64,000 nucleotides of DNA from Escherichia coli (GTDB taxonomy: Bacteria > Pseudomonadota > Gammaproteobacteria > Enterobacterales > Enterobacteriaceae): NCBI RefSeq assembly GCF_029227855.1, contig NZ_CP074356.1. One strand, given 5' to 3'. The notes under the pieces are model-generated. The model worked only from the letters and a program-made list of their open reading frames with translations, was not told the DNA's origin and ran no database searches. A program made the position numbers and the translations under genes. Below, piece by piece: positions 5,911-37,053 of this stretch (the stretch's first letter is position 1; the number at the start of each line of letters is the position of its first letter).

Positions 5911-7050
5911 ATGAGCGCGGGAAGCCCAAAATTCACCGTTCGCCGCATTGCGGCTTTGTCACTGGTTTCGCTATGGCTGGCAGGCTGTTCTGACACTTCA
6001 AATCCACCGGCCCCGGTCAGCTCCGTTAATGGCAATGCGCCTGCAAATACCAATTCTGGTATGTTGATTACGCCGCCGCCGAAAATGGGGACGACGTCTA
6101 CAGCTCAGCAACCGCAAATTCAGCCGGTACAGCAGCCACAAATTCAGGCAACTCAACAACCGCAAATCCAGCCGGTGCAGCCAGTAGCTCAGCAGCCGGT
6201 ACAGATGGAAAACGGACGCATCGTCTATAACCGTCAGTATGGGAACATTCCGAAAGGCAGTTATAGCGGCAGTACCTATACCGTGAAAAAAGGCGACACA
6301 CTTTTCTATATCGCCTGGATTACTGGCAACGATTTCCGTGACCTTGCTCAGCGCAACAATATTCAGGCACCATACGCGCTGAACGTTGGTCAGACCTTGC
6401 AGGTGGGTAATGCTTCCGGTACGCCAATCACTGGCGGAAATGCCATTACCCAGGCCGACGCAGCAGAGCAAGGAGTTGTGATCAAGCCTGCACAAAATTC
6501 CACCGTTGCTGTTGCGTCGCAACCGACAATTACGTATTCTGAGTCTTCGGGTGAACAGAGTGCTAACAAAATGTTGCCGAACAACAAGCCAACTGCGACC
6601 ACGGTCACAGCGCCTGTAACGGTACCAACAGCAAGCACAACCGAGCCGACTGTCAGCAGTACATCAACCAGTACGCCTATCTCCACCTGGCGCTGGCCGA
6701 CTGAGGGCAAAGTGATCGAAACCTTTGGCGCTTCTGAGGGGGGCAACAAGGGGATTGATATCGCAGGCAGCAAAGGACAGGCAATTATCGCGACCGCAGA
6801 TGGCCGCGTTGTTTATGCCGGTAACGCGCTGCGCGGCTACGGTAATCTGATTATCATCAAACATAATGATGATTACCTGAGTGCCTACGCCCATAACGAC
6901 ACAATGCTGGTCCGGGAACAACAAGAAGTGAAGGCGGGGCAAAAAATAGCAACCATGGGTAGCACCGGAACCAGTTCAACACGCTTGCATTTTGAAATTC
7001 GTTACAAGGGGAAATCCGTAAACCCGCTGCGTTATTTGCCGCAGCGATAA
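5911..7050 (+). CDS. nlpD: Murein hydrolase activator lipoprotein NlpD (LysM plus LytM/M23 domains)
   Basis: Track ORF 379 aa; lipobox LAGCS; Q/P-rich repeat; C-terminal M23-like domain; lies directly upstream of rpoS. Confidence 0.95.
6106..6203 (+). repeat. Imperfect tandem ~27-bp coding repeats inside nlpD, encoding QQPQIQPVQ-type units
   Basis: Repeated cagcaaccgcaaattcagccggtacag-like units visible in the sequence. Confidence 0.7.
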
Positions 7051-7112: not shown

Positions 7113-8105
7113 ATGAGTCAGAATACGCTGAAAGTTCATGATTTAAATGAAGATGCGGAATTTGATGAGAACGGAGTTGAGGTTTTTGACGAAAAGGCCT
7201 TAGTAGAAGAGGAACCCAGTGATAACGATTTGGCCGAAGAGGAACTGTTATCGCAGGGAGCCACACAGCGTGTGCTGGACGCGACTCAGCTTTACCTTGG
7301 TGAGATTGGTTATTCACCACTGTTAACGGCCGAAGAAGAAGTTTATTTTGCGCGTCGCGCACTGCGTGGAGATGTTGCCTCCCGCCGCCGGATGATCGAG
7401 AGTAACTTGCGTCTGGTGGTAAAAATTGCCCGCCGTTATGGCAATCGTGGTCTGGCGTTGCTGGACCTGATCGAAGAGGGCAACCTGGGGCTGATCCGCG
7501 CGGTAGAGAAGTTTGACCCGGAACGTGGTTTCCGCTTCTCAACATACGCAACCTGGTGGATTCGCCAGACGATCGAACGGGCGATTATGAACCAAACCCG
7601 TACTATTCGTTTGCCTATTCACATCGTAAAGGAGCTGAACGTTTACCTGCGAACCGCACGCGAGTTGTCCCATAAACTGGACCACGAACCAAGTGCGGAA
7701 GAGATCGCAGAGCAACTGGATAAGCCAGTTGATGACGTCAGCCGTATGCTTCGTCTTAACGAGCGCATTACCTCGGTAGACACCCCGCTGGGTGGTGATT
7801 CCGAAAAAGCGTTGCTGGACATCCTGGCCGATGAAAAAGAGAACGGTCCGGAAGATACCACGCAAGATGACGATATGAAGCAGAGCATCGTCAAATGGCT
7901 GTTCGAGCTGAACGCCAAACAGCGTGAAGTACTGGCACGTCGATTCGGTTTGCTGGGGTACGAAGCGGCAACACTGGAAGATGTAGGTCGTGAAATTGGC
8001 CTCACCCGTGAACGTGTTCGCCAGATTCAGGTTGAAGGCCTGCGCCGTTTGCGCGAAATCCTGCAAACGCAGGGGCTGAATATCGAAGCGCTGTTCCGCG
8101 AGTAA
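7113..8105 (+). CDS. rpoS: RNA polymerase sigma factor RpoS (sigma-38)
   Basis: Track ORF 7077..8105; start set to the ATG encoding [21 protein letters not shown], giving 330 aa; sigma-70 family regions present. Confidence 0.95.
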
Positions 8106-8154: not shown

Positions 8155-8865
8155 TGTGCACAGAAAACCCCCAGCTAGGCTGGGGGTTCCGGAAAGCTTT
8201 CAGCTTTAAGCCAGTTATTAAAACCCCTTTTGATTTGTTAAAACACCTTGCGGTCTGGCAACTGCAAGTGTCAAACAAGAAATCAAAAGGGGGTCCCAAT
8301 GGGGAACGAAAAGAGCTTAGCGCACACCCGATGGAACTGTAAATATCACATAGTTTTTGCGCCAAAATACCGAAGACAGGTGTTCTACAGAGAGAAGCGT
8401 AGAGCAATAGGCAGTATTTTGAGAAAGCTGTGTGAGTGGAAAAGTGTACGGATTCTGGAAGCTGAATGCTGTGCAGATCATATCCATATGCTTGTGGAGA
8501 TCCCGCCCAAAATGAGCGTATCCGGCTTTATGGGATATCTGAAAGGGAAAAGCAGTCTGATGCTTTACGAGCAGTTTGGTGATTTGAAATTCAAATACAG
8601 GAACAGGGAGTTCTGGTGCAGAGGGTACTACGTCGATACGGTGGGTAAGAACACGGCGAAGATACAGGATTACATAAAGCACCAGCTTGAAGAGGATAAA
8701 ATGGGAGAGCAGTTATCGATTCCCTATCCGGGCAGCCCGTTTACGGGCCGTAAGTAACGAAGTTGGATGCAAATGTCAGATCGTGTGCGCCTGTTAGGGC
8801 GCGGCTGGTAAGAGAGCCTTATAGGCGCATTTGAAAAACCTCCGGCTATGCCGGAGGATATTTAT
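8155..8865 (+). mobile_element. IS200-family insertion sequence (IS200/IS605 family); boundaries approximate
   Basis: Intact 152-aa Y1 HUH transposase with the HxH motif; hairpin at the left end (8166..8188); imperfect stem-loop around the RBS (8226..8290); hairpin at the right end (8839..8857); overall size about 0.7 kb as expected for IS200. Confidence 0.8.
8299..8757 (+). CDS. tnpA: IS200/IS605-family transposase TnpA (Y1 HUH)
   Basis: Track ORF 8248..8757 trimmed to the ATG preceded by an AAAAGGGGG Shine-Dalgarno; product 152 aa, MGNEKSLAHTRWNCKYHIVFAPKYRR...HIHMLVEIPPK, typical IS200 TnpA. Confidence 0.9.
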   Translation: MGNEKSLAHTRWNCKYHIVFAPKYRRQVFYREKRRAIGSILRKLCEWKSVRILEAECCADHIHMLVEIPPKMSVSGFMGYLKGKSSLMLYEQFGDLKFKYRNREFWCRGYYVDTVGKNTAKIQDYIKHQLEEDKMGEQLSIPYPGSPFTGRK

Positions 8866-8939: not shown

Positions 8940-9347
8940 CTATGTGTTCATCATCTTGCGCACTAGCTGCATAAACAGCTCCTGCTCTTCTCCACTCAAA
9001 CGCCCCAAAAATTCCTCATCCACGCTGTCACCTATCGGTATCGCCGCAGCAAGTATCTTTTCGCCTTCGGCAGTCAGCCAGACAAAGCGTCGCCGCTTGT
9101 CAGCGGCGTCATGTTCACGTCTGACTAAGCCACGATTTTCCATTCTTGCCAACATTTCTGCCAGCGTTGCTTTGGTGCTGACGGCTGCTTCTATCAGTGC
9201 CACCTGTTCGATACCAGGCTTATCAGCAATGGCGCGCATCACCGCGTACTGTGGTTTGGTCAGGTCAGGTAACTCGTGCTGCCAGCGGGCCGTGTGTTGC
9301 TGAAAAAGCTGTCGTAACTGATGGAACGCTTTATTTCGTAACGCCAT
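8940..9347 (-). CDS. hosA: MarR/SlyA-family transcriptional regulator (HosA-like)
   Basis: Track ORF 135 aa with a winged-helix MarR fold signature; divergent from the UbiX/UbiD-type operon. Confidence 0.8.
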   Translation of the reverse strand: MALRNKAFHQLRQLFQQHTARWQHELPDLTKPQYAVMRAIADKPGIEQVALIEAAVSTKATLAEMLARMENRGLVRREHDAADKRRRFVWLTAEGEKILAAAIPIGDSVDEEFLGRLSGEEQELFMQLVRKMMNT

Positions 9348-9462
9348 GTAAACTCCGGGCTAATTCTCTGTCGCTATCATAGCGGTTTTTCAGTGACGAA
9401 GAAGATGTTGTTACTTTTCAATCCTTGCCGCTGTGGAAATGAAGGAGTATGTTAATAATAAC

Positions 9463-9476
9463 GTTCGTATACGAAC
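9463..9476. promoter_or_regulatory. Perfect 14-bp palindrome GTTCGTATACGAAC in the hosA/ecdB divergent region; candidate MarR-type operator
   Basis: Exact inverted repeat read in the sequence, 18 nt upstream of the ecdB ATG. Confidence 0.5.
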
Positions 9477-9493
9477 AATTAAGAGAGTAAGCA

Positions 9494-10087
9494 ATGAAAC
9501 TGATCGTCGGGATGACAGGGGCTACCGGTGCGCCTCTTGGTGTGGCATTACTGCAAGCGCTGCGGGAGATGCCGAATGTCGAGACTCATCTGGTGATGTC
9601 GAAGTGGGCGAAAACCACTATTGAACTGGAAACGCCTTACAGCGCTCGCGATGTTGCCGCCCTCGCAGACTTCAGCCATAACCCGGCGGATCAGGCGGCG
9701 ACCATCTCCTCAGGTTCCTTTCGTACCGACGGCATGATCGTTATTCCGTGCAGTATGAAAACGCTCGCCGGTATCCGTGCCGGTTACGCCGATGGCCTGG
9801 TAGGGCGCGCGGCGGACGTCGTGCTCAAAGAAGGCCGCAAACTAGTGCTGGTGCCGCGTGAAATGCCGCTTAGCACCATCCATCTCGAAAATATGCTCGC
9901 ACTTTCACGCATGGGCGTGGCGATGGTGCCGCCGATGCCTGCCTTTTATAACCATCCCGAAACGGTAGATGACATTGTCCACCACGTGGTAGCCCGCGTG
10001 CTGGATCAATTTGGCCTCGAACATCCCCACGCCAGGCGCTGGCAAGAATTGCCGCAGGTCCGGAATTTTTCTCAGGAGAATGAATAA
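9494..10087 (+). CDS. ecdB: UbiX-type flavin prenyltransferase, B subunit of a non-oxidative hydroxyarylic acid decarboxylase
   Basis: Track ORF 197 aa; N-terminal MKLIVGMTGATGAPLG flavoprotein motif (UbiX/Pad1 family). Confidence 0.85.
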   Translation: MKLIVGMTGATGAPLGVALLQALREMPNVETHLVMSKWAKTTIELETPYSARDVAALADFSHNPADQAATISSGSFRTDGMIVIPCSMKTLAGIRAGYADGLVGRAADVVLKEGRKLVLVPREMPLSTIHLENMLALSRMGVAMVPPMPAFYNHPETVDDIVHHVVARVLDQFGLEHPHARRWQELPQVRNFSQENE

Positions 10088-11514
10088 TGGCATTTGATAA
10101 TTTACGCAGCTTTTTACAGGCGCTTGATGACCACGGCCAGTTACTGAAAATCAGCGAAGAGGTGAACGCGGAACCGGATCTGGCAGCAGCAGCTAACGCC
10201 ACCGGGCGTATCGGCGACGGCGCGCCCGCGCTGTGGTTTGACAATATTCGCGGCTTTACCGATGCCCGTGTGGCGATGAATACCATCGGTTCCTGGCAGA
10301 ACCACGCGATTTCCCTCGGCCTGCCGCCAAACACCCCGGTCAAAAAGCAGATTGATGAGTTTATCCGCCGCTGGGATAACTTCCCCATTGCCCCGGAGCG
10401 CCGCGCCAATCCAGCCTGGGCGCAGAACACCGTCGATGGCGACGAGATCAACCTGTTCGATATCCTGCCGCTGTTTCGTTTAAACGATGGCGATGGCGGT
10501 TTCTATCTCGACAAAGCGTGCGTGGTTTCCCGCGATCCGCTCGACCCGGATAACTTCGGCAAGCAGAACGTCGGTATCTATCGTATGGAAGTGAAGGGCA
10601 AACGTAAGCTCGGCCTGCAACCGGTGCCGATGCACGATATCGCCCTGCATCTGCATAAAGCGGAAGAACGCGGTGAAGATCTGCCGATTGCCATCACCTT
10701 GGGTAACGATCCGATCATCACGCTGATGGGGGCCACGCCGCTGAAATATGATCAGTCCGAGTATGAAATGGCAGGCGCGCTGCGCGAAAGCCCGTACCCG
10801 ATCGCCACCGCCCCGCTGACCGGTTTTGATGTGCCGTGGGGCTCGGAAGTGATCCTCGAAGGGGTCATCGAAAGCCGTAAACGCGAAATCGAAGGGCCGT
10901 TCGGTGAGTTTACCGGGCACTACTCCGGCGGGCGTAACATGACCGTGGTGCGTATCGATAAAGTCTCTTACCGCACCAGGCCGATTTTCGAATCGCTGTA
11001 CCTCGGCATGCCGTGGACAGAAATCGACTACCTGATGGGGCCAGCCACCTGCGTGCCGCTGTATCAGCAACTGAAAGCCGAGTTCCCGGAAGTGCAGGCG
11101 GTGAACGCCATGTACACCCACGGCCTGCTGGCGATTATCTCCACCAAAAAACGCTACGGTGGCTTTGCCCGCGCGGTGGGCCTGCGTGCGATGACCACGC
11201 CACACGGTCTGGGCTACGTGAAGATGGTGATTATGGTCGATGAAGACGTTGATCCGTTCAACCTGCCGCAGGTGATGTGGGCGCTCTCTTCGAAAGTGAA
11301 CCCGGCAGGGGATTTGGTGCAGTTGCCGAATATGTCCGTGCTGGAACTCGACCCTGGCTCAAGCCCGGCCGGTATCACCGACAAGCTGATTATCGACGCC
11401 ACCACGCCTGTCGCCCCGGACAACCGTGGTCACTACAGCCAGCCGGTGGTGGATTTACCGGAAACCAAAGCCTGGGCTGAAAAACTGACCGCTATGCTGG
11501 CCGCACGTAAATAA
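10087..11514 (+). CDS. ecdC: UbiD-family decarboxylase, C subunit
   Basis: Track ORF 475 aa; UbiD family; start overlaps the ecdB stop (ATAATGG). Confidence 0.85.
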   Translation: MAFDNLRSFLQALDDHGQLLKISEEVNAEPDLAAAANATGRIGDGAPALWFDNIRGFTDARVAMNTIGSWQNHAISLGLPPNTPVKKQIDEFIRRWDNFPIAPERRANPAWAQNTVDGDEINLFDILPLFRLNDGDGGFYLDKACVVSRDPLDPDNFGKQNVGIYRMEVKGKRKLGLQPVPMHDIALHLHKAEERGEDLPIAITLGNDPIITLMGATPLKYDQSEYEMAGALRESPYPIATAPLTGFDVPWGSEVILEGVIESRKREIEGPFGEFTGHYSGGRNMTVVRIDKVSYRTRPIFESLYLGMPWTEIDYLMGPATCVPLYQQLKAEFPEVQAVNAMYTHGLLAIISTKKRYGGFARAVGLRAMTTPHGLGYVKMVIMVDEDVDPFNLPQVMWALSSKVNPAGDLVQLPNMSVLELDPGSSPAGITDKLIIDATTPVAPDNRGHYSQPVVDLPETKAWAEKLTAMLAARK

Positions 11515-11524
11515 GGAGAACAAG

Positions 11525-11761
11525 ATGATTTGTCCACGTTGTGCCGATGAACAGATTGAAGTGATGGCGAAATCGCCGGTAAAAGATGTCTGGACGGTCT
11601 ACCAGTGCCAGCATTGCCTCTATACCTGGCGCGATACCGAACCGCTACGCCGCACCAGCCGCGAACATTACCCGGAAGCGTTTCGTATGACGCAGAAAGA
11701 CATTGATGACGCGCCAATGGTGCCGAGCATTCCGCCGCTGCTGGCGGAAGGTAAGCGCTAA
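11525..11761 (+). CDS. ecdD: Small zinc-ribbon subunit (D) of the decarboxylase
   Basis: Track ORF 78 aa with CPRC...CQHC; third gene of the three-gene operon. Confidence 0.75.
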   Translation: MICPRCADEQIEVMAKSPVKDVWTVYQCQHCLYTWRDTEPLRRTSREHYPEAFRMTQKDIDDAPMVPSIPPLLAEGKR

Positions 11762-11766
11762 ATAAA

Positions 11767-11792
11767 AGGTCCGATGCCCATCGGACCTTTTT
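11767..11792. terminator. Bidirectional rho-independent terminator between convergent ecdD and ygbN
   Basis: aggtccgatg-ccc-atcggacct hairpin flanked by an A-run and a T-run. Confidence 0.75.
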
Positions 11793-11799
11793 ATTAAGG

Positions 11800-13164
11800 T
11801 CAAATTACCGCCCATACGCACCAGGTAATTAAGAATCCGGTAAAACCGAGAATGGTCGTTAACACTGTCCAGGTTTTCAGACCGTCTGCTACCGACAACC
11901 CCAGATATTTGGTCACAATCCAGAACCCTGAGTCATTAATATGTGACGCGCCAAGCCCACCAAAGCAGGCTGCCAGCGTCACCAATACGCACTGAATCGG
12001 ATTCAATCCCATCACCGCTTCTGAGAGTAACCCGCCGGTTGTCAGGATTGCTACGGTTGCTGACCCCTGCGATGCACGCAGCGCCAGTGAAATAATAAAT
12101 GCGGCTGGTAACAGAGGCAGGTCAATCATTTGTAGCATGTTGGCAAGGGCTTTGCCGACGCCCGATTCCACCAGCACTTTGCCAAATACCCCTCCAGCAC
12201 CAGTAACCAAAATCACTACCGCCGCGGTGGGAAGGGCTGAGCCCATAATGTCGCTGGTGTGTTGTAAGCTCCAGCCGCGACGTAAAGCCAATAACCAGAA
12301 TGCCAGCACCAGCGCAATCATTAGAGCTACCATTGGTGAGCCGATCAGCTGTAGCGTACCAAGCAGGGGATGCGAAGGCGGCATCAGTGTTGCGGAAACC
12401 GTACCCGCCATGATAATCGCGATAGGAATAACAATTAGCGAGGTGACCAGCGCGACGCCCGGTGGATTTATTTTATCGCTTAATTTTGTCGCGCCTTCCT
12501 CACTGGCCGGAGCCAGTTGCATCTGTTCCAGTACTTCCACCGACATCGCATATTGGCACTTATTGATTATTTTCGCTGCAAAGTAGCCAACAATCCCTAC
12601 GGGAATAGAAATCGCAATACCGATGATGGTTAGCCAGCCGATGTCTGCGTGGAGTAACCCCGCTGCGGCGACAGGGCCTGGATGCGGCGGTACCGCCACA
12701 TGAACAGTTAGCATGATTCCAGCGACAGGCAGGCCAAATTTGAGTGGCGATATTTTGGCAACCTTGGCAAAACCGTAAATGATTGGCGCAAGAATAATAA
12801 AGCCGACATCAAAGAAGACGGGAATACCGAGGAAGAACGCTGCCAGAGTCAGCGCAGCGATAGTTCGTTTGTCACCTAACTTGCGACTGAAATAATTAGC
12901 CAGTGACTCTGCACCACCAGAGTGTTCGATCATACGCCCCAGCATAGCGCCCAGACCAATAATAATAGTGACGGAACCAAGCACACCGCCCATCCCGGCG
13001 ATCATCACTTTACCCACTTCGCCCGCCGGTATACCCGCCGCAAGTGCGACTAACAGGCTGACGAGGAGCAGAGCAACGAATGGTTGTACCTTTGCCTTGA
13101 TGACCAGCAGCAACAGCATGATTACGCCAGTTAACGCAATGCATAACAATGTAATTGTGGACAT
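11800..13164 (-). CDS. ygbN: GntP-family permease YgbN
   Basis: Track ORF 454 aa, polytopic membrane protein of the GntP family. Confidence 0.9.
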   Translation of the reverse strand: MSTITLLCIALTGVIMLLLLVIKAKVQPFVALLLVSLLVALAAGIPAGEVGKVMIAGMGGVLGSVTIIIGLGAMLGRMIEHSGGAESLANYFSRKLGDKRTIAALTLAAFFLGIPVFFDVGFIILAPIIYGFAKVAKISPLKFGLPVAGIMLTVHVAVPPHPGPVAAAGLLHADIGWLTIIGIAISIPVGIVGYFAAKIINKCQYAMSVEVLEQMQLAPASEEGATKLSDKINPPGVALVTSLIVIPIAIIMAGTVSATLMPPSHPLLGTLQLIGSPMVALMIALVLAFWLLALRRGWSLQHTSDIMGSALPTAAVVILVTGAGGVFGKVLVESGVGKALANMLQMIDLPLLPAAFIISLALRASQGSATVAILTTGGLLSEAVMGLNPIQCVLVTLAACFGGLGASHINDSGFWIVTKYLGLSVADGLKTWTVLTTILGFTGFLITWCVWAVI

Positions 13165-21173: not shown

Positions 21174-21419
21174 GGGGTTATGTCCGGTTCCCTGATATTA
21201 AATGGGGTGTGATGGTTTTTATTTTCGTTGTAATCACATAAGGCGCACATGATACCGGAGTTAATCATTTCAGGGGAAGAAGCGAACGGCGAGTTCTTGA
21301 GGGTGATTCCGGGAAAGATGCTGTTTTGCAGCTTTTGCGTGATGATTATGAAGCAAGTACGCAAAATTGCGTCGGTTGAATAAACCTCCTCCTTCAGAGC
21401 CATAGTCCCCTTTCAAATT

Positions 21420-21442
21420 AAGTTGTAATATAAATACACCTT
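21420..21442 (+). promoter_or_regulatory. Candidate NsrR operator upstream of ygbA
   Basis: AAGTTGTAATATAAATACACCTT resembles the NsrR inverted repeat (AAGATGYATTT-N-AAATRCATCTT); ends 17 nt upstream of the ygbA ATG. Confidence 0.45.
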
Positions 21443-21459
21443 AAGAGTATGGAGGCAGC

Positions 21460-21804
21460 ATGTCCGGCAAGCGTATCTCTCGTGAAAAACTGACGATTAA
21501 AAAAATGATCGATCTTTATCAAGCGAAATGCCCGCAGGCGTCAGCGGAGCCGGAGCATTACGACGCGCTGTTTGCCTACGCGCAAAAGCGGCTGGATAAA
21601 TGTGTGTTCGGCGAAGAGAAACCAGCCTGTAAGCAGTGTCCGGTGCACTGTTACCAGCCTGCAAAGCGTGAAGAGATGAAACAGATTATGCGTTGGGCCG
21701 GGCCGCGAATGCTGTGGCGTCATCCGATCTTAACCGTGCGTCATCTCATCGATGACAAGCGTCCGGTGCCGGAGTTGCCAGAAAAATATCGTCCAAAGAA
21801 ATAA
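21460..21804 (+). CDS. ygbA: Cysteine-rich conserved protein YgbA
   Basis: Track ORF 114 aa; conserved neighbour of mutS. Confidence 0.85.
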   Translation: MSGKRISREKLTIKKMIDLYQAKCPQASAEPEHYDALFAYAQKRLDKCVFGEEKPACKQCPVHCYQPAKREEMKQIMRWAGPRMLWRHPILTVRHLIDDKRPVPELPEKYRPKK

Positions 21805-21807
21805 ATC

Positions 21808-21832
21808 TGCCGGAGAGCCATACTCTCCGGCA
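21808..21832. terminator. Bidirectional terminator hairpin between ygbA and the convergent TOBE gene
   Basis: 10-bp perfect stem tgccggagag/ctctccggca with a 5-nt loop; A/T-rich flanks on both sides. Confidence 0.6.
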
Positions 21833-21842
21833 AATAAGGCGT

Positions 21843-22271
21843 TTACGCTTTGGTGGCAATCAGGATGGCTGATGCTTTGATCAATGCAATAACGCGCGAG
21901 CCAGTGGTGAGTTTCATTTCATCCTGACTTTCATTTGTTACCACTGCCACAATTTCAAAACCCGCATCCGTTTTGATATGGACAGTGGCGTTCACTGCGC
22001 CTTCGGTGATTGTCGACACGCTGCCAGCAAACTGGTTGCGAGCAGAGAATTTCAGTCCACAGTCTTCCGTTGCCAGCGTTACCCACGGGGCTTTAATCAG
22101 GGCAATCGCTTCTTTCCCTTTCGCCAGACCCAGAGCCTGCTGGCTGCTGTGAGTCACAATTGCCACCAGCTTTGCACCACCTGCCAGCGTCAGTTCTACT
22201 TCGTCATTCACCGCGCCCATTGCTACTGCGCTAACTGTTCCGGTTAATTGATTTCTTGCTGAAACTGCCAT
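21843..22271 (-). CDS. Tandem TOBE (Mop-like) domain protein, putative molybdate/oxyanion-binding molbindin
   Basis: Track ORF 21843..22310; start set to the ATG preceded by an AAAGGAGG Shine-Dalgarno (142 aa); two internal repeats beginning SARNQLTGTVSAV and SARNQFAGSVSTI. Confidence 0.7.
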   Translation of the reverse strand: MAVSARNQLTGTVSAVAMGAVNDEVELTLAGGAKLVAIVTHSSQQALGLAKGKEAIALIKAPWVTLATEDCGLKFSARNQFAGSVSTITEGAVNATVHIKTDAGFEIVAVVTNESQDEMKLTTGSRVIALIKASAILIATKA

Positions 22272-22315
22272 ACTGCCTCCTTTCATTGAATGTTGATCGA
22301 GTATAACCACATCTG

Positions 22316-24394
22316 TTAAATCAATGCCGATTTATCAATTCCCAGTCGCTTCATCCGTGACAGCAGAGTCGTGCGTTTCAGCCCCAGACGTTGCGCAGCG
22401 CCTTTAGGCCCGGCAACCACGCCGTTTGTTTCTTTCAGCACGCGAACAATCAACTGATATTCATCTTCGCCCTCCTGGGCGACAACCGTTGCGGCAGGCG
22501 GCGTTTCTGGTTCCGGTAAAACAATATCTGGCAGTGACAGCTGCAGCACGTTGCCGCGTGTTAGCAATACCGCGCGCTCGATGACGTTTTCCAGTTCGCG
22601 CACGTTACCCGGCCACTCCATGTTGCTCAAGGTGCGCAACGTCTCGGCAGGAATGCTGTCGATATTGCGCCCCAGACGACGGGCAATTTTGAAGGTAAAG
22701 GCTTTCGCCAGCAGCGGAATATCTTCCGGACGCTCGCGCAGGGGCGGCAGGTGGATCGGGAATACGTTCAGGCGGTAATAGAGATCGCTACGGAACTCTC
22801 GGTCGGCGACCATTTTTTTCAGATCGCGGTTAGTCGCGGCAATTAAACGTACGTCCGTCTGAATGATTTTGTTGCTGCCGAGGCGTTCAAACTCCTGTTC
22901 CTGTAATACACGCAGCAACTTCGGCTGTAACTCCAGTGGCATATCGCCCACTTCGTCGAGGAACAGGGAGCTTTTATCCGCCAGTTCAAAACGACCAATG
23001 CGCTGGGCGCTGGCACCGGTAAAAGCCCCACGCTCATGACCAAACAGATCGCTCTCCAGCAATCCGGCAGGCATCGCCGCGCAGTTCATTTTTACCATGC
23101 GGCGATTATTACGCCCACTGAGATTATGGATAGCACGGGCAATCAGCTCTTTACCTGTACCAGTTTCACCGAGAATCAGCACGGTACTGTCGCTTTGCGC
23201 CACCATTTCAACTTGTTTAAGTACGCTGTACATGGCTTCGCTGCGGCCAATAATCTCGCCAAATTCACTATCAACATTGTTGAGCTGCTCGGTCAGGGCG
23301 AGGTTTTCATCAACCAGCCGTTCTTTCAGACGATGGATTTCCTGATAGGCGAGGGCGTTATCGACAGCGATTGCCACACGTTCGGCAATCTGGCGCAGTA
23401 AATTCAGATTGGTAGTGGTAAACACTTTCTCTTCGCATTGCGCCAGTTTCAGCACGCCCAGCATGGTGTCGCCAGACATCAGCGGTAACAGGCACAAGGT
23501 TTGAATCTGGTTGCCCCAGGTGTCGAACAACATGCGTTCATAGGGGGCTAAATCGTCCCGCTCGTGGAGATTAATCAGCAGCATCTCTTTGCTTTTGAAC
23601 ACGCGTTCGGTGAGGGTTCCGGCTTCATCGACTTCGCTCTGTTCGTGGGCGGGATGCTGTTTATCAAGATAGTGAGTGGAGTAGATGTTGAGTTTGTTTT
23701 TACGGTGGCTGCGTAAGACGATGCTGATATCGTCAATGTCGAAGTAGTAATGGATTTCTTTGGCGACTTCGCTGACCAGTTCGTCCATATCCAGGCGGGA
23801 AAGCACCGCGTTGGTGATGGCGACCAGGATACGGAAGTTATCGCGCTCCCGGCATAACAACTCATAGTCGACATTATTGACGACGCGGCTCTGGATTTGT
23901 TCGGTGACGACAGAAACGATCTGCGTAAATGTTTGCAGACGATTGAACTCTTTTTCGCTCCAGGGGCGATCGTCATAACGAATAAATTCACAGCCACCAA
24001 AAATATGCCCTTCCGCCGCCAGTGGCATCAGGCAATAGTGACCAAATTTGGGGTATAGCCCACCTGCGGCCAGCTGCGGCCAGGTTTCACAAAATTCTTC
24101 GTAACTGCAATGCAGCGTATCAGGGCGCGACAAAATGCTGCGTACCGGACCGTGTGCCAGAACAGTTTCGTCTTCATATTTAATGGGGGTGTCTTTTTCA
24201 CGCGATGCGTAATAAGACGCACGTTGAGTCTGCGCTTGCCACAACACAATAGCCGCGTTGTCGGCGAGCGCAGAACGCTTTACCAGTTGCGAAAGAGCCT
24301 CACACAGCGAGGCCAGATCGGGCTGCTGCAATAGTGTCCGAGTGATGTCGAACAACCCTTGTTGTCCGAGATCACTCATCGGTGTATATGACAT
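22316..24394 (-). CDS. fhlA: Formate hydrogenlyase transcriptional activator FhlA (sigma-54 enhancer-binding protein)
   Basis: Track ORF 22316..24430; start set to the ATG encoding MSYTPMSDLGQQG (692 aa); GAF domains, AAA+ sigma-54 interaction domain ([14 protein letters not shown]) and C-terminal HTH. Confidence 0.95.
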   Translation of the reverse strand: MSYTPMSDLGQQGLFDITRTLLQQPDLASLCEALSQLVKRSALADNAAIVLWQAQTQRASYYASREKDTPIKYEDETVLAHGPVRSILSRPDTLHCSYEEFCETWPQLAAGGLYPKFGHYCLMPLAAEGHIFGGCEFIRYDDRPWSEKEFNRLQTFTQIVSVVTEQIQSRVVNNVDYELLCRERDNFRILVAITNAVLSRLDMDELVSEVAKEIHYYFDIDDISIVLRSHRKNKLNIYSTHYLDKQHPAHEQSEVDEAGTLTERVFKSKEMLLINLHERDDLAPYERMLFDTWGNQIQTLCLLPLMSGDTMLGVLKLAQCEEKVFTTTNLNLLRQIAERVAIAVDNALAYQEIHRLKERLVDENLALTEQLNNVDSEFGEIIGRSEAMYSVLKQVEMVAQSDSTVLILGETGTGKELIARAIHNLSGRNNRRMVKMNCAAMPAGLLESDLFGHERGAFTGASAQRIGRFELADKSSLFLDEVGDMPLELQPKLLRVLQEQEFERLGSNKIIQTDVRLIAATNRDLKKMVADREFRSDLYYRLNVFPIHLPPLRERPEDIPLLAKAFTFKIARRLGRNIDSIPAETLRTLSNMEWPGNVRELENVIERAVLLTRGNVLQLSLPDIVLPEPETPPAATVVAQEGEDEYQLIVRVLKETNGVVAGPKGAAQRLGLKRTTLLSRMKRLGIDKSALI

Positions 24395-24467
24395 TTTGTT
24401 CTTCCAGGAAAGCACCGCAAAGCGGTGCAAAAGGTCATTGACTAACTATAGGAGATTTAGAATTTTA

Positions 24468-25478
24468 TTAGCATATACGCGGAAGCGGTTCGGCGTGTGG
24501 TAAATCGAGGGTTCGTTTCACGCCATACAGACCGGCAAGACGAACACCTTTACGTTCCACCACTTCACCAATCAGCGCCGCGTCTTTCCCCAGTGGATGG
24601 GAATGTAACGCTGCCAAAACTTGCTCTGCCGCGTTGCGTTCAACGGCGATCACCAGTTTGCCTTCGTTGGCAAAGTTAAGGGCGTCCAGTCCCAGCAGTT
24701 CGCAAACGCCGCGCACAGCAGGTTTAACCGGCAGTGCCGCTTCTGAAATTTCAATACCGCAACCGCAGGCTGCCGCGAACTCATGAACTACCGCGTTTAC
24801 ACCACCACGGGTGGCATCACGCAGCGCTTTCACGCCGGGAATGTCACGCAGCGTCTGAATAAGCGGCGTTAGTACCGCGCAGTCGCTGACCAGTTCGCCG
24901 TCCAGCCCCAGTTGCTCACGCAGGTTAAGGATAGTCGCCCCGTGGTCGCCGAGCGTGCCGCTAACCAGTAATACATCGCCTGCGGTTAGCGTCTGTGCGC
25001 CCCAGTGAATATTCGCCGGAATTGCGCCCATGCCAGCGGTGTTGATAAACAGTTTATCTGCCGCGCCGCGCTGCACCACTTTAGTATCGCCAGTGACGAT
25101 GGCAATGCCTGCCGCGCGGGCGGTTTCTGCCATGCTGGTCACTACGGCTTTCAGTGTCTCCATCGGCAATCCTTCTTCGAGGATAAAGCCACAGGAGAGA
25201 TAGCGCGGAATAGCGCCACTGACCGCTACGTCATTCGCGGTGCCGCAAATCGCCAGCTTGCCGATATTACCGCCAGGAAAGAACAGCGGGTCAATGACGT
25301 AACTGTCGGTGGAGAACGCCAGACGGTCGCCTTCCGCTACCAGCTGCGCCAGATCAAGACGGGCCTGATCTTCCTGCTCTGCCAGCCACGGGTTGGCAAA
25401 GGCTTCCATAAACAGGCTGTTGATTAATTGCTGCATCGCCTGGCCGCCGCTACCGTGGGCGAGTTGGATATTATTCAC
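24468..25478 (-). CDS. hypE: Hydrogenase maturation protein HypE
   Basis: Track ORF 336 aa; GTG start; AIR-synthase-like fold; C-terminal PRIC. Confidence 0.93.
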   Translation of the reverse strand: MNNIQLAHGSGGQAMQQLINSLFMEAFANPWLAEQEDQARLDLAQLVAEGDRLAFSTDSYVIDPLFFPGGNIGKLAICGTANDVAVSGAIPRYLSCGFILEEGLPMETLKAVVTSMAETARAAGIAIVTGDTKVVQRGAADKLFINTAGMGAIPANIHWGAQTLTAGDVLLVSGTLGDHGATILNLREQLGLDGELVSDCAVLTPLIQTLRDIPGVKALRDATRGGVNAVVHEFAAACGCGIEISEAALPVKPAVRGVCELLGLDALNFANEGKLVIAVERNAAEQVLAALHSHPLGKDAALIGEVVERKGVRLAGLYGVKRTLDLPHAEPLPRIC

Positions 25479-26596
25479 GCTTCACTCTCCTGCTGACGAT
25501 ACTGATACCACGCGGCGCACGCTCCTTCGGAGGAAACCATCAGCGCACCAAACGCGGTTTGAGGATTACAGGTGTTACCAAACAGCGGGCATTGATGCGG
25601 CTTACATTTGCCCGTTAATACTTCGCCACAACGTGCGCGCGGGTCATCGCAGACCTGCTGCGGTGCCGGGCGGAAATGCGCTTCGGCATCGAATCGTTGA
25701 TAATCCGGCGTCAGGTGTACACCAGAAGATTCAATCACGCCTAAGCCGCGCCATTCGCTGTCGCCGTTGACACAGAACACATCGGCAATCGCCTGTTGCG
25801 CCAGCAGGTTACCGGCATCCGGCACCACCCGACGATACTGATTCTCTACCTTGCTGTGGGCCGCTATTTTCTGCTCCACCAGCATGACCACGCCTTGCAG
25901 TAGATCAAGGGGTTCGAAACCAGCGACCACCAGCGGACGATGAAAATCGCTGGCGATAAAATTATAGGCATCAGTGCCGATAACCATACTAACGTGACCG
26001 GGCGCAAGAAACGCGTCGATACCGTTATCCGGCTCTTCCAGCAAACTGCGCAGCGTCGGGATAAGCGTAATATGCTGGCAGAAGAAGTAAAAATTCTGCA
26101 CATCACGCGCTTTCGCCTGTTGCAGAGTGATGGCCGTCGTCGGCATGGTGGTTTCAAAACCTAAGCCGAAGAACACCACTTTGCGGGTTGGATTCTCCTG
26201 CGCCAGTTTCAACGCATCCATCGGCGAGTAAACGATGCGCACATCGGCACCGCGTGCTTTTGCCTGCAACAGCGATCCCTGTTTCCCCGGCACGCGCATG
26301 GCGTCGCCAAAGGTACAGAAGATGACTTCCGGATGGCTGGCAATCTCCACGCAGGTGTCGATTCTACCCATCGGCAGTACACACACCGGGCAACCGGGAC
26401 CGTGGATAAACTCAACGTTTTCCGGCAGCAACTGGTCGAGGCCGAATTTAAAAATGGCGTGGGTATGACCACCGCACACTTCCATAATCCGCAGAGGGCG
26501 TTCGGCGGTGTAAGAGAGATGTGAAGCACGTTCGCGCAGATGCTCAATTAACTGCATCACCTGTTCCGGCGAGCGATATTCATCAACAAAACGCAT
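25475..26596 (-). CDS. hypD: Hydrogenase maturation protein HypD
   Basis: Track ORF 373 aa; conserved CGGH and GPGCPVC motifs. Confidence 0.93.
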   Translation of the reverse strand: MRFVDEYRSPEQVMQLIEHLRERASHLSYTAERPLRIMEVCGGHTHAIFKFGLDQLLPENVEFIHGPGCPVCVLPMGRIDTCVEIASHPEVIFCTFGDAMRVPGKQGSLLQAKARGADVRIVYSPMDALKLAQENPTRKVVFFGLGFETTMPTTAITLQQAKARDVQNFYFFCQHITLIPTLRSLLEEPDNGIDAFLAPGHVSMVIGTDAYNFIASDFHRPLVVAGFEPLDLLQGVVMLVEQKIAAHSKVENQYRRVVPDAGNLLAQQAIADVFCVNGDSEWRGLGVIESSGVHLTPDYQRFDAEAHFRPAPQQVCDDPRARCGEVLTGKCKPHQCPLFGNTCNPQTAFGALMVSSEGACAAWYQYRQQESEA

Positions 26597-26868
26597 TATT
26601 TTTCCTCGCCATACAACAGCGCACCGACATCCGGCTCAACGTCAAACATGTTTTGTAAGGCGTCGAGAGTGTCGCGCGCTTCGGCTTCATTAATTACGCT
26701 CATGGCAAAGCCAACGTGAACCAGTACCCACTGGCCCACGCGCGGCTGACCGTTTTCATCGCAGCTGCCGACTAACGTTAAATCGACATCGCGCTGAATG
26801 CCGCAGACGTCGACTTTCGCCTGGTTGCCGTCAATGGTGCGGATCTGGCCGGGAACGCCTATGCACAT
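26596..26868 (-). CDS. hypC: Hydrogenase maturation chaperone HypC
   Basis: Track ORF 26596..26895 trimmed to the ATG encoding the canonical MCIGVPG N-terminus (90 aa). Confidence 0.9.
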
Positions 26869-27731
26869 CGCTGTGTCTCCAGCCAGTTCAGCCACTGGTC
26901 CATCCCTTCGCCGCTGGTGGCGGAAATAAGGATGATTTCAATTTCTGGATTGACTTCGCGGGCGCAGGCGATGCACTTCTCAACGTCAAAGTTGAGATAC
27001 GGCAGCAAGTCAACTTTGTTGAGCAGCATCAGCGAAGCTGCGGCAAACATATGCGGATATTTCAGCGGTTTGTCTTCACCTTCGGTAACGGAAAGCACCG
27101 CCACTTTGTGTTTTTCACCGAGATCGAAGCTGGCCGGGCACACGAGGTTGCCGACGTTTTCGATAAACAGAATACCGTTATCGTCCAGTGGCAGGCGCGG
27201 TGCGGCGTCGGCAATCATCTGTGCGTCAAGATGGCAGCCTTTACCGGTATTCACCTGAATCGCTGGTGTGCCGGTAGCGCGAATGCGTGCGGCATCGTTC
27301 ACGGTTTGCTGATCGCCTTCAATAACCGCGCACGGAACGCTGTCTTTCAGGCGCATTAAGGTTTCCGTCAGCAGGGTGGTTTTACCGGAACCAGGGCTGG
27401 AAACCAGGTTGAGCACCAGTTGCTTGCGGGCAGCAAAGCGCGCGCGGTTGCGTTCAGCCAGACGGTTATTTTTGTCCAGCACGTCAATTTCGACTTCCAG
27501 CATCCGACGCTGGCTCATGCCCGGCGCGTGAGTGCCCGCTTCGCCATGACCGTAATGCAGGTCGCCTTCTTCAGTCTGGCTGGGGGTAAATTCAGGCGTT
27601 TTAATGCCGGTGATTTTCATCTTCGGGCGTGCCGCCGGGGCAAATGGCGCGCTACGAAACGCGGAATGAGGGTTATGTTCATCACCCTCGATATACAGGT
27701 TGCCTTCACCGCAACCGCATGTTGTACACAT
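26859..27731 (-). CDS. hypB: Hydrogenase nickel-incorporation GTPase HypB
   Basis: Track ORF 290 aa; N-terminal [10 protein letters not shown] metal-binding motif; P-loop GSGKTT. Confidence 0.93.
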
Positions 27732-27734
27732 CGC

Positions 27735-28085
27735 TCACTCCTGGTCTATTTCTATCCGCCGAATCTGTAAACCGTCGTCTGCCACAATCTGTAGCATGTC
27801 ACCATGACACTGTGGACAGCGGCGGACGCGCTGGGTCAGTAGCGTCACATACTGTTGGCATGTTTCACACCAGCATTCGGCCTCTTGTTCTTCGAGGTGC
27901 AGTTTACAACCTTCCGCCACGCTGCCGCGGCAAACCAGATCAAAACAAAAGGCAAGAGAGCTGGTTTCGACACAAGAAAATGCGCCAATTTTGAGCCAGA
28001 CCCCAGTTACGCGTTTTGCGCCGTGTTTTGCGGCCTGCTGTTCGATCAATTCCAGTGCCCGTTGGCAGAGGGTTATTTCGTGCAT
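27735..28085 (-). CDS. hypA: Hydrogenase nickel-insertion protein HypA
   Basis: Track ORF 27735..28097 trimmed to the ATG encoding MHEITLC (116 aa); zinc-finger CxxC pairs. Confidence 0.9.
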   Translation of the reverse strand: MHEITLCQRALELIEQQAAKHGAKRVTGVWLKIGAFSCVETSSLAFCFDLVCRGSVAEGCKLHLEEQEAECWCETCQQYVTLLTQRVRRCPQCHGDMLQIVADDGLQIRRIEIDQE

Positions 28086-28115: not shown

Positions 28116-28132
28116 AGCAATAATTGTGCCAG
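28116..28132 (-). promoter_or_regulatory. Sigma-54 (-24/-12) promoter of the hyp operon
   Basis: Reverse complement reads cTGGCACaattaTTGCt, with correct GG to GC spacing, upstream of hypA. Confidence 0.75.
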
Positions 28133-36325: not shown

Positions 36326-36637
36326 ATGCACATCATTTCGAAAGCGCCATTTGAAGAGTGTGCGCGCAAATATCCTAACGACGCTCTGGCTCTACACTCA
36401 TTGTATCGGGTTATTAAGGAAACGGATTTTTCTACACCAGAAGAAATGCGAACGGCGTTTCCTAACCTCGACAATTTTAAATATCGCAACAAATGGTACG
36501 TTCTGGATGTCGGCGGGAACAATCTTAGGGTTATTGCCTACATAAACTTTGTTAATAAGCGGTTCTTTGTGAAGCACATAACGAATCACGCAGAGTATGA
36601 CAAACTGACACGTTACTACAGAGAGAACAAAGAATGA
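36326..36637 (+). CDS. Type II toxin, HigB-like (RelE/ParE superfamily mRNA interferase)
   Basis: Track ORF 103 aa; resembles E. coli HigB (MH.I.KA...YP, FP.LDNFKY, VGGN.LRV, TH.EYD); AAGGAAG Shine-Dalgarno; stop overlaps the next ATG (ATGA). Confidence 0.8.
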   Translation: MHIISKAPFEECARKYPNDALALHSLYRVIKETDFSTPEEMRTAFPNLDNFKYRNKWYVLDVGGNNLRVIAYINFVNKRFFVKHITNHAEYDKLTRYYRENKE

Positions 36638-37053
36638 CTGCTAATGCTGCACGCGCTGTTAAAGCAACAAGAGAACTGGTCAATGCAGTCCCCTTTCTGG
36701 GAGGCAGTGACTCAGAAGATGATTATCGTGAAGCACTGGAACTGGTCGAATATTTGATTGAAGAAGATGACACCAATCCACTTATCGACTTTCTGGCGAG
36801 CCGCATTGCAGAATATGAAAACAACAACGAAAAGTTTGCAGAGTTCGACAAAGCCGTTGCAGCAATGCCGGTTGGCGTGGCGTTACTTCGTACGCTGATT
36901 GATCAACATAATTTGACCTATGCGGATTTGAAGAACGAAATCGGCTCTAAATCTCTGGTCAGTCAGATTTTGTCTGGGCAACGATCCCTGACGATATCCC
37001 ATATTAAGGCACTTTCAGCCCGATTTGGCGTTAAGCCGGAATGGTTTCTTTGA
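36634..37053 (+). CDS. Type II antitoxin, HigA-like (XRE-type HTH)
   Basis: Track ORF 139 aa; C-terminal HTH (SKSLVSQILSGQRSLTISHIKALSARFGV); same architecture as HigA; translationally coupled to the upstream toxin. Confidence 0.8.
   Translation: MTANAARAVKATRELVNAVPFLGGSDSEDDYREALELVEYLIEEDDTNPLIDFLASRIAEYENNNEKFAEFDKAVAAMPVGVALLRTLIDQHNLTYADLKNEIGSKSLVSQILSGQRSLTISHIKALSARFGVKPEWFL

Follow-up and report, generated by a model that had tools for sequence, protein, structure and literature searches.

What is the small gene that separates fhlA from ygbA in some strains of E. coli, and why does it lie behind the genes for hydrogenase maturation and formate hydrogenlyase control? We addressed this question in a 64,000-nucleotide stretch of E. 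coli DNA (contig NZ_CP074356.1), which we call the window. The following features of the window are relevant to the answer:

21460..21804, plus strand: ygbA, the convergent neighbor, coding for 114 amino acids in the gene-carrying allele
21805..21835, minus strand: intrinsic terminator directly after the stop codon of the gene under study, with a 14-bp stem and a U-rich tail (terminator scan, RNA fold)
21843..22271, minus strand: coding sequence, stop codon included, of a predicted di-Mop (ModG-type) molbindin of 142 amino acids (ORF, Pfam, NCBIfam, RefSeq)
21861..22046, minus strand: Mop/TOBE domain 2, residues 76–137 (Pfam PF03459, 6.2e-16)
22074..22262, minus strand: Mop/TOBE domain 1, residues 4–66 (Pfam PF03459, 1.6e-17)
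22276..22282, minus strand: Shine–Dalgarno sequence AAGGAGG, 4 nt upstream of the ATG (read from the sequence)
22300..22305, minus strand: TATACT, a −10-like hexamer in the spacer behind fhlA, lacking a good −35 and not called by the consensus promoter scan
22316..24394, minus strand: fhlA, formate hydrogenlyase transcriptional activator, upstream on the same strand (ORF, annotation)
24468..28085, minus strand: hypABCDE, hydrogenase maturation genes, upstream in a presumed common transcription unit (annotation of a near-identical locus)
28116..28131, minus strand: candidate sigma-54 −24/−12 element TGGCACAATTATTGCT upstream of hypA (pattern match, one mismatch)

The reading frame starts with the ATG at position 22271 of the minus strand and codes for a 142-residue protein. 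Its equivalents are c3292 of strain CFT073, the name used here, and RefSeq entry WP_000301062.1 ("TOBE domain-containing protein"). The RefSeq annotation of c3292 comes from a genome with a 100% match over a 1301-bp query around the gene, and that of hypABCDE from a locus with one mismatch in 17.3 kb relative to the window. The fhlA stop codon at 22316–22318 leaves a spacer of 44 nt before c3292, and the GGAG of the Shine–Dalgarno sequence is invariant in a spacer alignment of 12 genera. A first-pass annotation of the window had described exactly this arrangement: a 142-residue protein with two repeated TOBE domains, preceded by a strong Shine–Dalgarno sequence and encoded directly downstream of fhlA and convergent to ygbA. 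An ORF-finder listing also gives a 155-residue version with a GTG start, which we rejected because the orthologues and the N-termini of ModG and Mop proteins all begin with M-x-(V/I)-SARN.

Comparison with related genomes confirmed that c3292 is a real and intact gene and not a chance reading frame, since each of 45 orthologues from Enterobacterales has 142 residues and an ATG start, a length that is constant across about 20 genera, and since dN/dS falls between 0.02 and 0.12 overall (Nei–Gojobori, with the window gene as reference). The ratio is 0.03 against E. albertii, 0.05 against Citrobacter, 0.06–0.08 against Klebsiella, Kluyvera, and Enterobacter, and 0.09–0.12 against Cedecea and Edwardsiella. 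These values point to strong purifying selection.

Protein family and oxyanion ligands

In addition to the two PF03459 matches, the NCBIfam model TIGR00638 ("Mop") recognizes two stretches of the c3292 protein with 142 bits against a cut-off of 55 (E 4e-42). The two halves of the protein are identical at 30 of 70 residues with an offset of 72. Pfam and NCBIfam searches detected no DNA-binding or ATPase domain, nor any other domain besides the two tandem Mop/TOBE domains. The closest structural relative is ModG from Azotobacter vinelandii (PDB 1H9J, 1H9K, 1H9M), a cytoplasmic di-Mop molbindin that likewise consists of two domains in ~140 residues. The c3292 protein matches ModG 1h9j over its full length (phmmer E 5e-33), and a BLASTP alignment contains 49% identical residues and no gaps (E 2e-42). 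An AlphaFold2 model of the monomer, computed with 23 homologues, reached a mean pLDDT of 96 and a pTM of 0.87. Its top Foldseek matches in the PDB are ModG 1h9j, 1h9k, and 1h9m (TM 0.95, rmsd 1.3 Å, 142 columns), followed by the DiMop domain of E. coli ModE (TM 0.88–0.90).

The ligands of bound oxyanions have been described for Tub from Eubacterium limosum, and ModG, Mop, and ModE are stated to have similar sites (PMC11980592). The type-1 site is formed by the backbone of Ala20-Val21-Asn22, and the type-2 site by Ser4, Arg6, Lys60, and Ala61 together with Ser40 from the neighboring subunit (PMC11980592). By way of ungapped alignments with Tub, ModG, and ModE, we mapped the corresponding positions of the c3292 protein to S4, R6, A20-V21-N22, T40, S43, K60, and A61 in domain 1, and to S76, R78, A92-V93-N94, T112, S115, K132, and A133 in domain 2. 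The SARN, GAVN, T..S, and KA motifs are thus present in both domains, as they are in ModG, and the ligand positions are invariant or nearly so among 46 sequences. Judging from these residues and from the predicted fold, we consider it very probable that the c3292 protein binds molybdate or tungstate.

The protein is a ModG-type di-Mop molbindin, because it contains neither a DNA-binding nor an ATPase domain and scores far below the equivalog cut-offs for ModE and for ModC/WtpC. The C-terminal DiMop portion of E. coli ModE (PDB 1H9R, 1H9S, 1O7L, 1B9M) does share the two-domain fold and the domain 1 ligands with the c3292 protein, at 34–37% identity. However, ModE is a protein of about 262 residues that combines this portion with a winged-helix, DNA-binding N-terminal domain, which the c3292 protein lacks. 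The match to the NCBIfam ModE model is confined to profile positions 124–261 and reaches 88 bits, short of the cut-off of 369. There is also no space for an N-terminal domain in c3292, because the reading frame starts 44 nt after the fhlA stop codon. Furthermore, ModE no longer has the ligands in its second Mop domain (NADN for SARN, P for T, NA for KA); the c3292 protein keeps both sets. With these ModE traits missing, the label "modE" that Lerminiaux et al. gave to the gene between fhlA and ygbA (PMC7232297) and the name "molybdate transport system regulatory protein" in some sources are wrong.

The same is true for the name "transporter" used by some sources, since the ModC and WtpC models match with their C-terminal TOBE part only (47–49 bits against cut-offs of 285–440) and not with the ABC ATPase that precedes this part in ModC and WtpC. 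"Molybdopterin-binding protein", found in some records, is a mislabel as well. Identification of the c3292 product as a ModG-type molbindin would correct all three labels.

The single-domain hexameric molbindins, such as MopII from Clostridium pasteurianum (1GUG), Mop from Sporomusa ovata (1FR3), and Tub (9BEB), differ from the c3292 protein in chain architecture. Each half of the latter aligns end to end with the ~70-residue Mop and Tub sequences (40% identity to Tub), and the ligands of both site types occupy identical positions, but both domains reside in one chain of 142 residues. The gene product would be a cytoplasmic molbindin of 14–15 kDa with two β-barrel domains of the Mop/TOBE type, both ligand-competent. 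By analogy with A. vinelandii ModG, the fusion of two domains implies that three chains instead of six would make up an eight-site particle, and the protein most likely forms a trimer with room for up to eight molybdate or tungstate oxyanions where its subunits meet.

The parallel with ModG does not extend to genomic context. As described in PMC11980592 and references therein, A. vinelandii ModG contributes to molybdenum homeostasis and nitrogenase synthesis and is regulated by ModE. According to literature cited there (PMC11980592), modG sits with the mod transport genes, whereas c3292 ends the hyp–fhlA unit. The host of c3292 is not a diazotroph and has no ModE box at this gene; presumably, the client enzyme is not the one served by ModG. 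The link to mod genes and ModE reported for modG is thus absent from c3292, although this link is a contextual trait and not part of the structural definition of the family.

Distribution, alleles, and ancestry of the locus

Searching complete E. coli genomes with the gene as a query identified c3292 in 1892 of 5426 (about 35%). It is always chromosomal, always present in a single copy, and full length and intact in all but three of the carriers (1889 of 1892). The 1301-bp query around the gene matches in 5419 of the 5426 genomes, but with at least 80% coverage in only 1888; the remaining genomes are missing its middle part. Carriers include the ST131 strain JJ1886, CFT073, and the phylogroup F strain IAI39; our statements on phylogroups rest on such named strains and on PMC4209514 and PMC7232297. 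O157:H7 strains do not carry the gene, and in K-12 MG1655 a gene-free gap of 36 bp separates fhlA from ygbA.

Alignment of the two types of locus showed that ~470 bp are missing from the K-12-type allele, a gap that begins just past the terminator hairpin and ends a few bases short of the fhlA stop codon. A homologous terminator hairpin is retained. A 106-bp probe spanning the K-12 junction (at least 97% identity over at least 80% of its length) detected the identical deletion in 3505 of the 5426 genomes (65%). Since 1892 and 3505 account for 5397 of 5426 genomes, E. coli is essentially dimorphic at fhlA–ygbA, with one deletion allele. The first-pass annotation had suspected that the gene is absent from K-12 and variable among strains, and had suggested comparing the fhlA–ygbA interval across E. 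coli genomes. The comparison bears out both suspicions, and with significant TOBE matches in the product and an empty interval in K-12, nothing speaks against the original description. The alleles also differ in ygbA, the product of which has 117 residues in the K-12 deletion allele versus 114 (ending in YRPKK) where c3292 is present. The differing ends map to 21795–21804 of the window and to 6454–6465 of a K-12-type locus (L052). The deletion therefore remodeled the C-terminus of ygbA and the common terminator hairpin as well.

Both c3292 and its polymorphism were already known from annotation and from the literature; the name on record is a predicted one. Ewers et al. (2014) used a c3292 primer and reported a fhlA–mutS amplicon of 1673 bp for CFT073 and of 1208 bp for MG1655 and EDL933 (PMC4209514). 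Their c3292 primer matches the window exactly at 22228–22246, and the distance between the fhlA and mutS primers in the window is about 1674 bp. The long amplicon was reported for B2-associated "pattern III" strains only (PMC4209514). The window is a counter-example to this exclusivity: besides c3292 it has, in the ygbN–rpoS interval, the MarR/SlyA-like regulator and the hydroxyarylic acid decarboxylase BCD of "pattern IV". In the literature we found no experimental or functional study of the c3292 protein, only passing mentions (PMC4209514, PMC7232297); a transcriptome paper on E. coli Nissle in colitis does not mention the gene. c3292 is in this sense an already catalogued accessory gene of a well-understood and structurally known family.

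Which of the two alleles is older can be judged from other genera. In 36 of 46 Enterobacterales loci the orthologue directly follows fhlA, and in three further loci, from Phytobacter/Kosakonia (including Kosakonia sp. S29), it directly follows hypE with fhlA absent. The order hypE–fhlA–gene, usually continued by ygbA, occurs in E. albertii (99% protein identity), in a cryptic Escherichia clade, and in Citrobacter, Pseudocitrobacter, Raoultella, Klebsiella, Kluyvera, Pluralibacter, Yokenella, Lelliottia, Enterobacter, and Kosakonia. Because these outgroups share the synteny, the presence of c3292 at the fhlA locus is ancestral in Enterobacteriaceae and the K-12 deletion is derived; the carriers did not acquire the gene. 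Two loci, from Raoultella sp. BIGb0138 (L014) and Enterobacter sp. BIGb0383 (L030), have ygbA downstream but differ from their congeners in that the 6 kb upstream contain neither hypE nor fhlA.

In Serratia, Cedecea, Edwardsiella, and Salmonella the orthologue occurs in contexts unrelated to hyp–fhlA. In Serratia and Edwardsiella its neighbors are dapA, gcvR, exporters, a nucleotidase, and a diguanylate cyclase, and a search beside these orthologues for a second, independent link to molybdenum or formate hydrogenlyase found none. The Salmonella enterica orthologue (L055, 6001–6429; L056, 4025–4453) is 89% identical and does not lie downstream of fhlA. Its surroundings are variable, with an IS21 fragment, a CaiF/GrlA-type regulator, and fimbrial genes including an usher, and a sulfite-oxidase-family molybdoenzyme with a cytochrome b partner (MsrPQ-like) is encoded ~3 kb away. 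This context suggests relocation or horizontal transfer in that genus.

Proposed transcription unit and function

We infer that c3292 is the last cistron of the hypABCDE–fhlA transcription unit, because the spacer to fhlA is short, no terminator intervenes, a strong one follows, and the gene has no consensus promoter or ModE site of its own. The terminator scan found no terminator in the 44-nt gap, which is also predicted to be unstructured (z 0.24). The hairpin at 21805..21835, in contrast, folds with −25.4 kcal/mol (z −5.35); it lies between the convergent c3292 and ygbA and is common to both. No sigma-70 consensus promoter was found on the minus strand within 21300–24700, and a scan for sigma-54 −24/−12 elements near c3292 returned sub-chance matches only. 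From the biology of the K-12 hyp operon, we take the element TGGCACAATTATTGCT upstream of hypA to be the would-be FhlA- and formate-dependent promoter that could drive the whole unit.

ModE of E. coli recognizes the consensus ATCGNTATATA-N6-TATATANCGAT (PMC545781). The core CGNTATATA-N6-TATATANCG has no match with up to three mismatches anywhere in the 64-kb window. The spacer motif CTATACT does not qualify as part of a ModE site either, as no second half-site accompanies it. The TATACT hexamer within this motif is kept as CTATA(C/A)N in Escherichia, Citrobacter, Pseudocitrobacter, Pluralibacter, and Kluyvera, while the remaining spacer diverges. It could serve as the −10 element of a weak internal promoter, and its conservation could mean that transcription of c3292 is partly independent of fhlA.

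What would a molbindin contribute at this position? Formate hydrogenlyase needs nickel for hydrogenase 3, delivered via HypA and HypB, and molybdenum for formate dehydrogenase-H. Transcription would read through from fhlA into c3292 and end at the strong terminator behind the latter. As the last gene of the hypABCDE–fhlA unit, c3292 would be expressed when formate hydrogenlyase is assembled, in the absence of oxygen and on induction by formate. The most likely job of its product would be to capture and buffer cytoplasmic molybdate for synthesis of the molybdenum cofactor of formate dehydrogenase-H, so that cofactor supply can match the Hyp-dependent insertion of nickel into hydrogenase 3. Since formate hydrogenlyase requires both metals, a molybdate buffer or store for formate dehydrogenase-H is the most economical reading of the locus. 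The first-pass annotation had offered buffering of molybdate or tungstate beside formate hydrogenlyase as a speculation, and this idea agrees with the kinship to crystallized ModG and with the complete set of conserved ligands. The chances that the protein serves formate hydrogenlyase and formate dehydrogenase-H in particular seem to us about even. The combined reading, in which a ModG-type oxyanion binder is made from the hyp–fhlA unit and buffers molybdenum for formate dehydrogenase-H, we regard as moderately probable.

Several observations count against a molybdenum buffer. The gene is dispensable, as it is cleanly deleted in the 3505 genomes with the junction allele, K-12 among them, and the formate hydrogenlyase of K-12 works well. 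The link to hyp–fhlA is not universal, given the Serratia, Cedecea, Edwardsiella, and Salmonella loci. Finally, c3292 has no ModE box, whereas A. vinelandii modG is under ModE control according to literature cited in PMC11980592.

Other readings of c3292 were weighed as well. The protein could mainly bind tungstate ("TudG-like"), thereby keep tungsten out of molybdenum-cofactor synthesis, and protect formate dehydrogenase-H and other molybdoenzymes from tungsten misincorporation in the gut. Mop/TOBE sites accept molybdate and tungstate alike. Tub has equal affinity for the two and acts as a tungsten store in vivo (PMC11980592), and its ligand set is identical to that of the c3292 protein. The ModG architecture is also more frequent in gut species predicted to use tungsten, a prediction that was made from the presence of TupA or of tungsten-dependent oxidoreductases (PMC11980592). 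Sequence alone does not separate a preference for molybdenum from one for tungsten, and the link of c3292 to hyp–fhlA is explained more simply by molybdenum supply than by a tungstate sink. Moreover, E. coli is not known to make physiological use of tungsten. We consider a tungstate sink to be unlikely. A role in regulation, either as a molybdate-dependent partner of the ModE di-Mop domain or by acting on FhlA in the manner of HycA, would allow the protein to tune the FhlA regulon or the mod operon. The position immediately downstream of a regulator gene in 36 loci, the fold shared with the ModE sensor domain, and the fact that expression of hyc and fdhF in K-12 requires molybdate are consistent with such a sensor. 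However, the protein has no DNA-binding domain, and unlike ModE it has full ligand sets in both domains, as storage proteins do. Molybdate-dependent regulation also operates in K-12, where c3292 is absent. In Phytobacter and in Kosakonia sp. S29 the gene remains after hypE without fhlA, which speaks for a tie with the hyp operon and not with FhlA as such. Taken together, a sensor function appears very unlikely.

The abundance of the deletion allele raises a different possibility, namely that the protein has kept its capacity for oxyanion binding but makes no measurable contribution in E. coli, and was lost from most of the species for this reason. Such a marginal relic would account for the one deletion allele common to 65% of complete genomes and for the absence of the gene from K-12 and O157:H7; in addition, ModE and ModABC already control molybdenum homeostasis in E. 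coli. The low dN/dS against E. albertii and Citrobacter, the invariant length across about 20 genera, and the intact state of the gene in nearly every carrier argue in the opposite direction, as does the finding of a single deletion allele in place of many independent decay events. For these reasons we judge a relic to be improbable.

The wider bearing of c3292 is modest. Molybdenum homeostasis of E. coli was worked out in K-12, that is, without c3292, while about 35% of sequenced E. coli carry a gene for a free cytoplasmic molbindin, and many other Enterobacteriaceae have such a gene attached to the hyp–fhlA operon. If the protein affects the handling of molybdenum or tungsten, it would act as a lineage-specific modifier of formate hydrogenlyase and of molybdoenzyme biogenesis. 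In a stronger form of this proposal, which we hold to be decidedly unlikely, the fhlA-linked ModG orthologue is a molybdenum chaperone or store reserved for formate dehydrogenase-H that protects formate hydrogenlyase, and possibly other molybdoenzymes, from molybdate scarcity or tungstate. Were it true, textbook molybdenum homeostasis built on K-12 would have missed a molybdenum chaperone or store. Presence of the gene in B2/F ExPEC-type lineages, E. albertii, Citrobacter, and Klebsiella versus its loss in K-12-type strains would then make strains differ in their fitness in the gut and in how they respond to tungstate-based microbiota editing.

Other variable features of the window

The window contains further differences between strains. 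A transposase gene of the IS200C family (8248–8757, plus strand) lies between rpoS (7113–8105) and a MarR/SlyA-like regulator gene. The near-identical strain JNEC-KY178 has an additional IS1 between nlpD and rpoS that is absent from the window, so the neighborhood of rpoS has been struck repeatedly by insertion sequences. The adjoining segment at ~8940–13164, with the MarR/SlyA-like regulator, the genes for hydroxyarylic acid decarboxylase B, C, and D (kpdBCD), and ygbN, corresponds to "pattern IV" of the o454–nlpD polymorphism (PMC4209514).

On the other side of hyp, the hycI–ascB interval carries a HigB-family toxin gene and an overlapping gene for a helix-turn-helix antitoxin (~36326–37053, plus strand). 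The same interval in K-12 MG1655 is a gap of only 158 bp, which makes the toxin–antitoxin pair another strain-variable insertion, here beside the hyc operon. Between mutS and ygbA, RefSeq annotates a 44-residue "hypothetical protein" (21249–21383, plus strand) in c3292-positive as well as K-12-type genomes.
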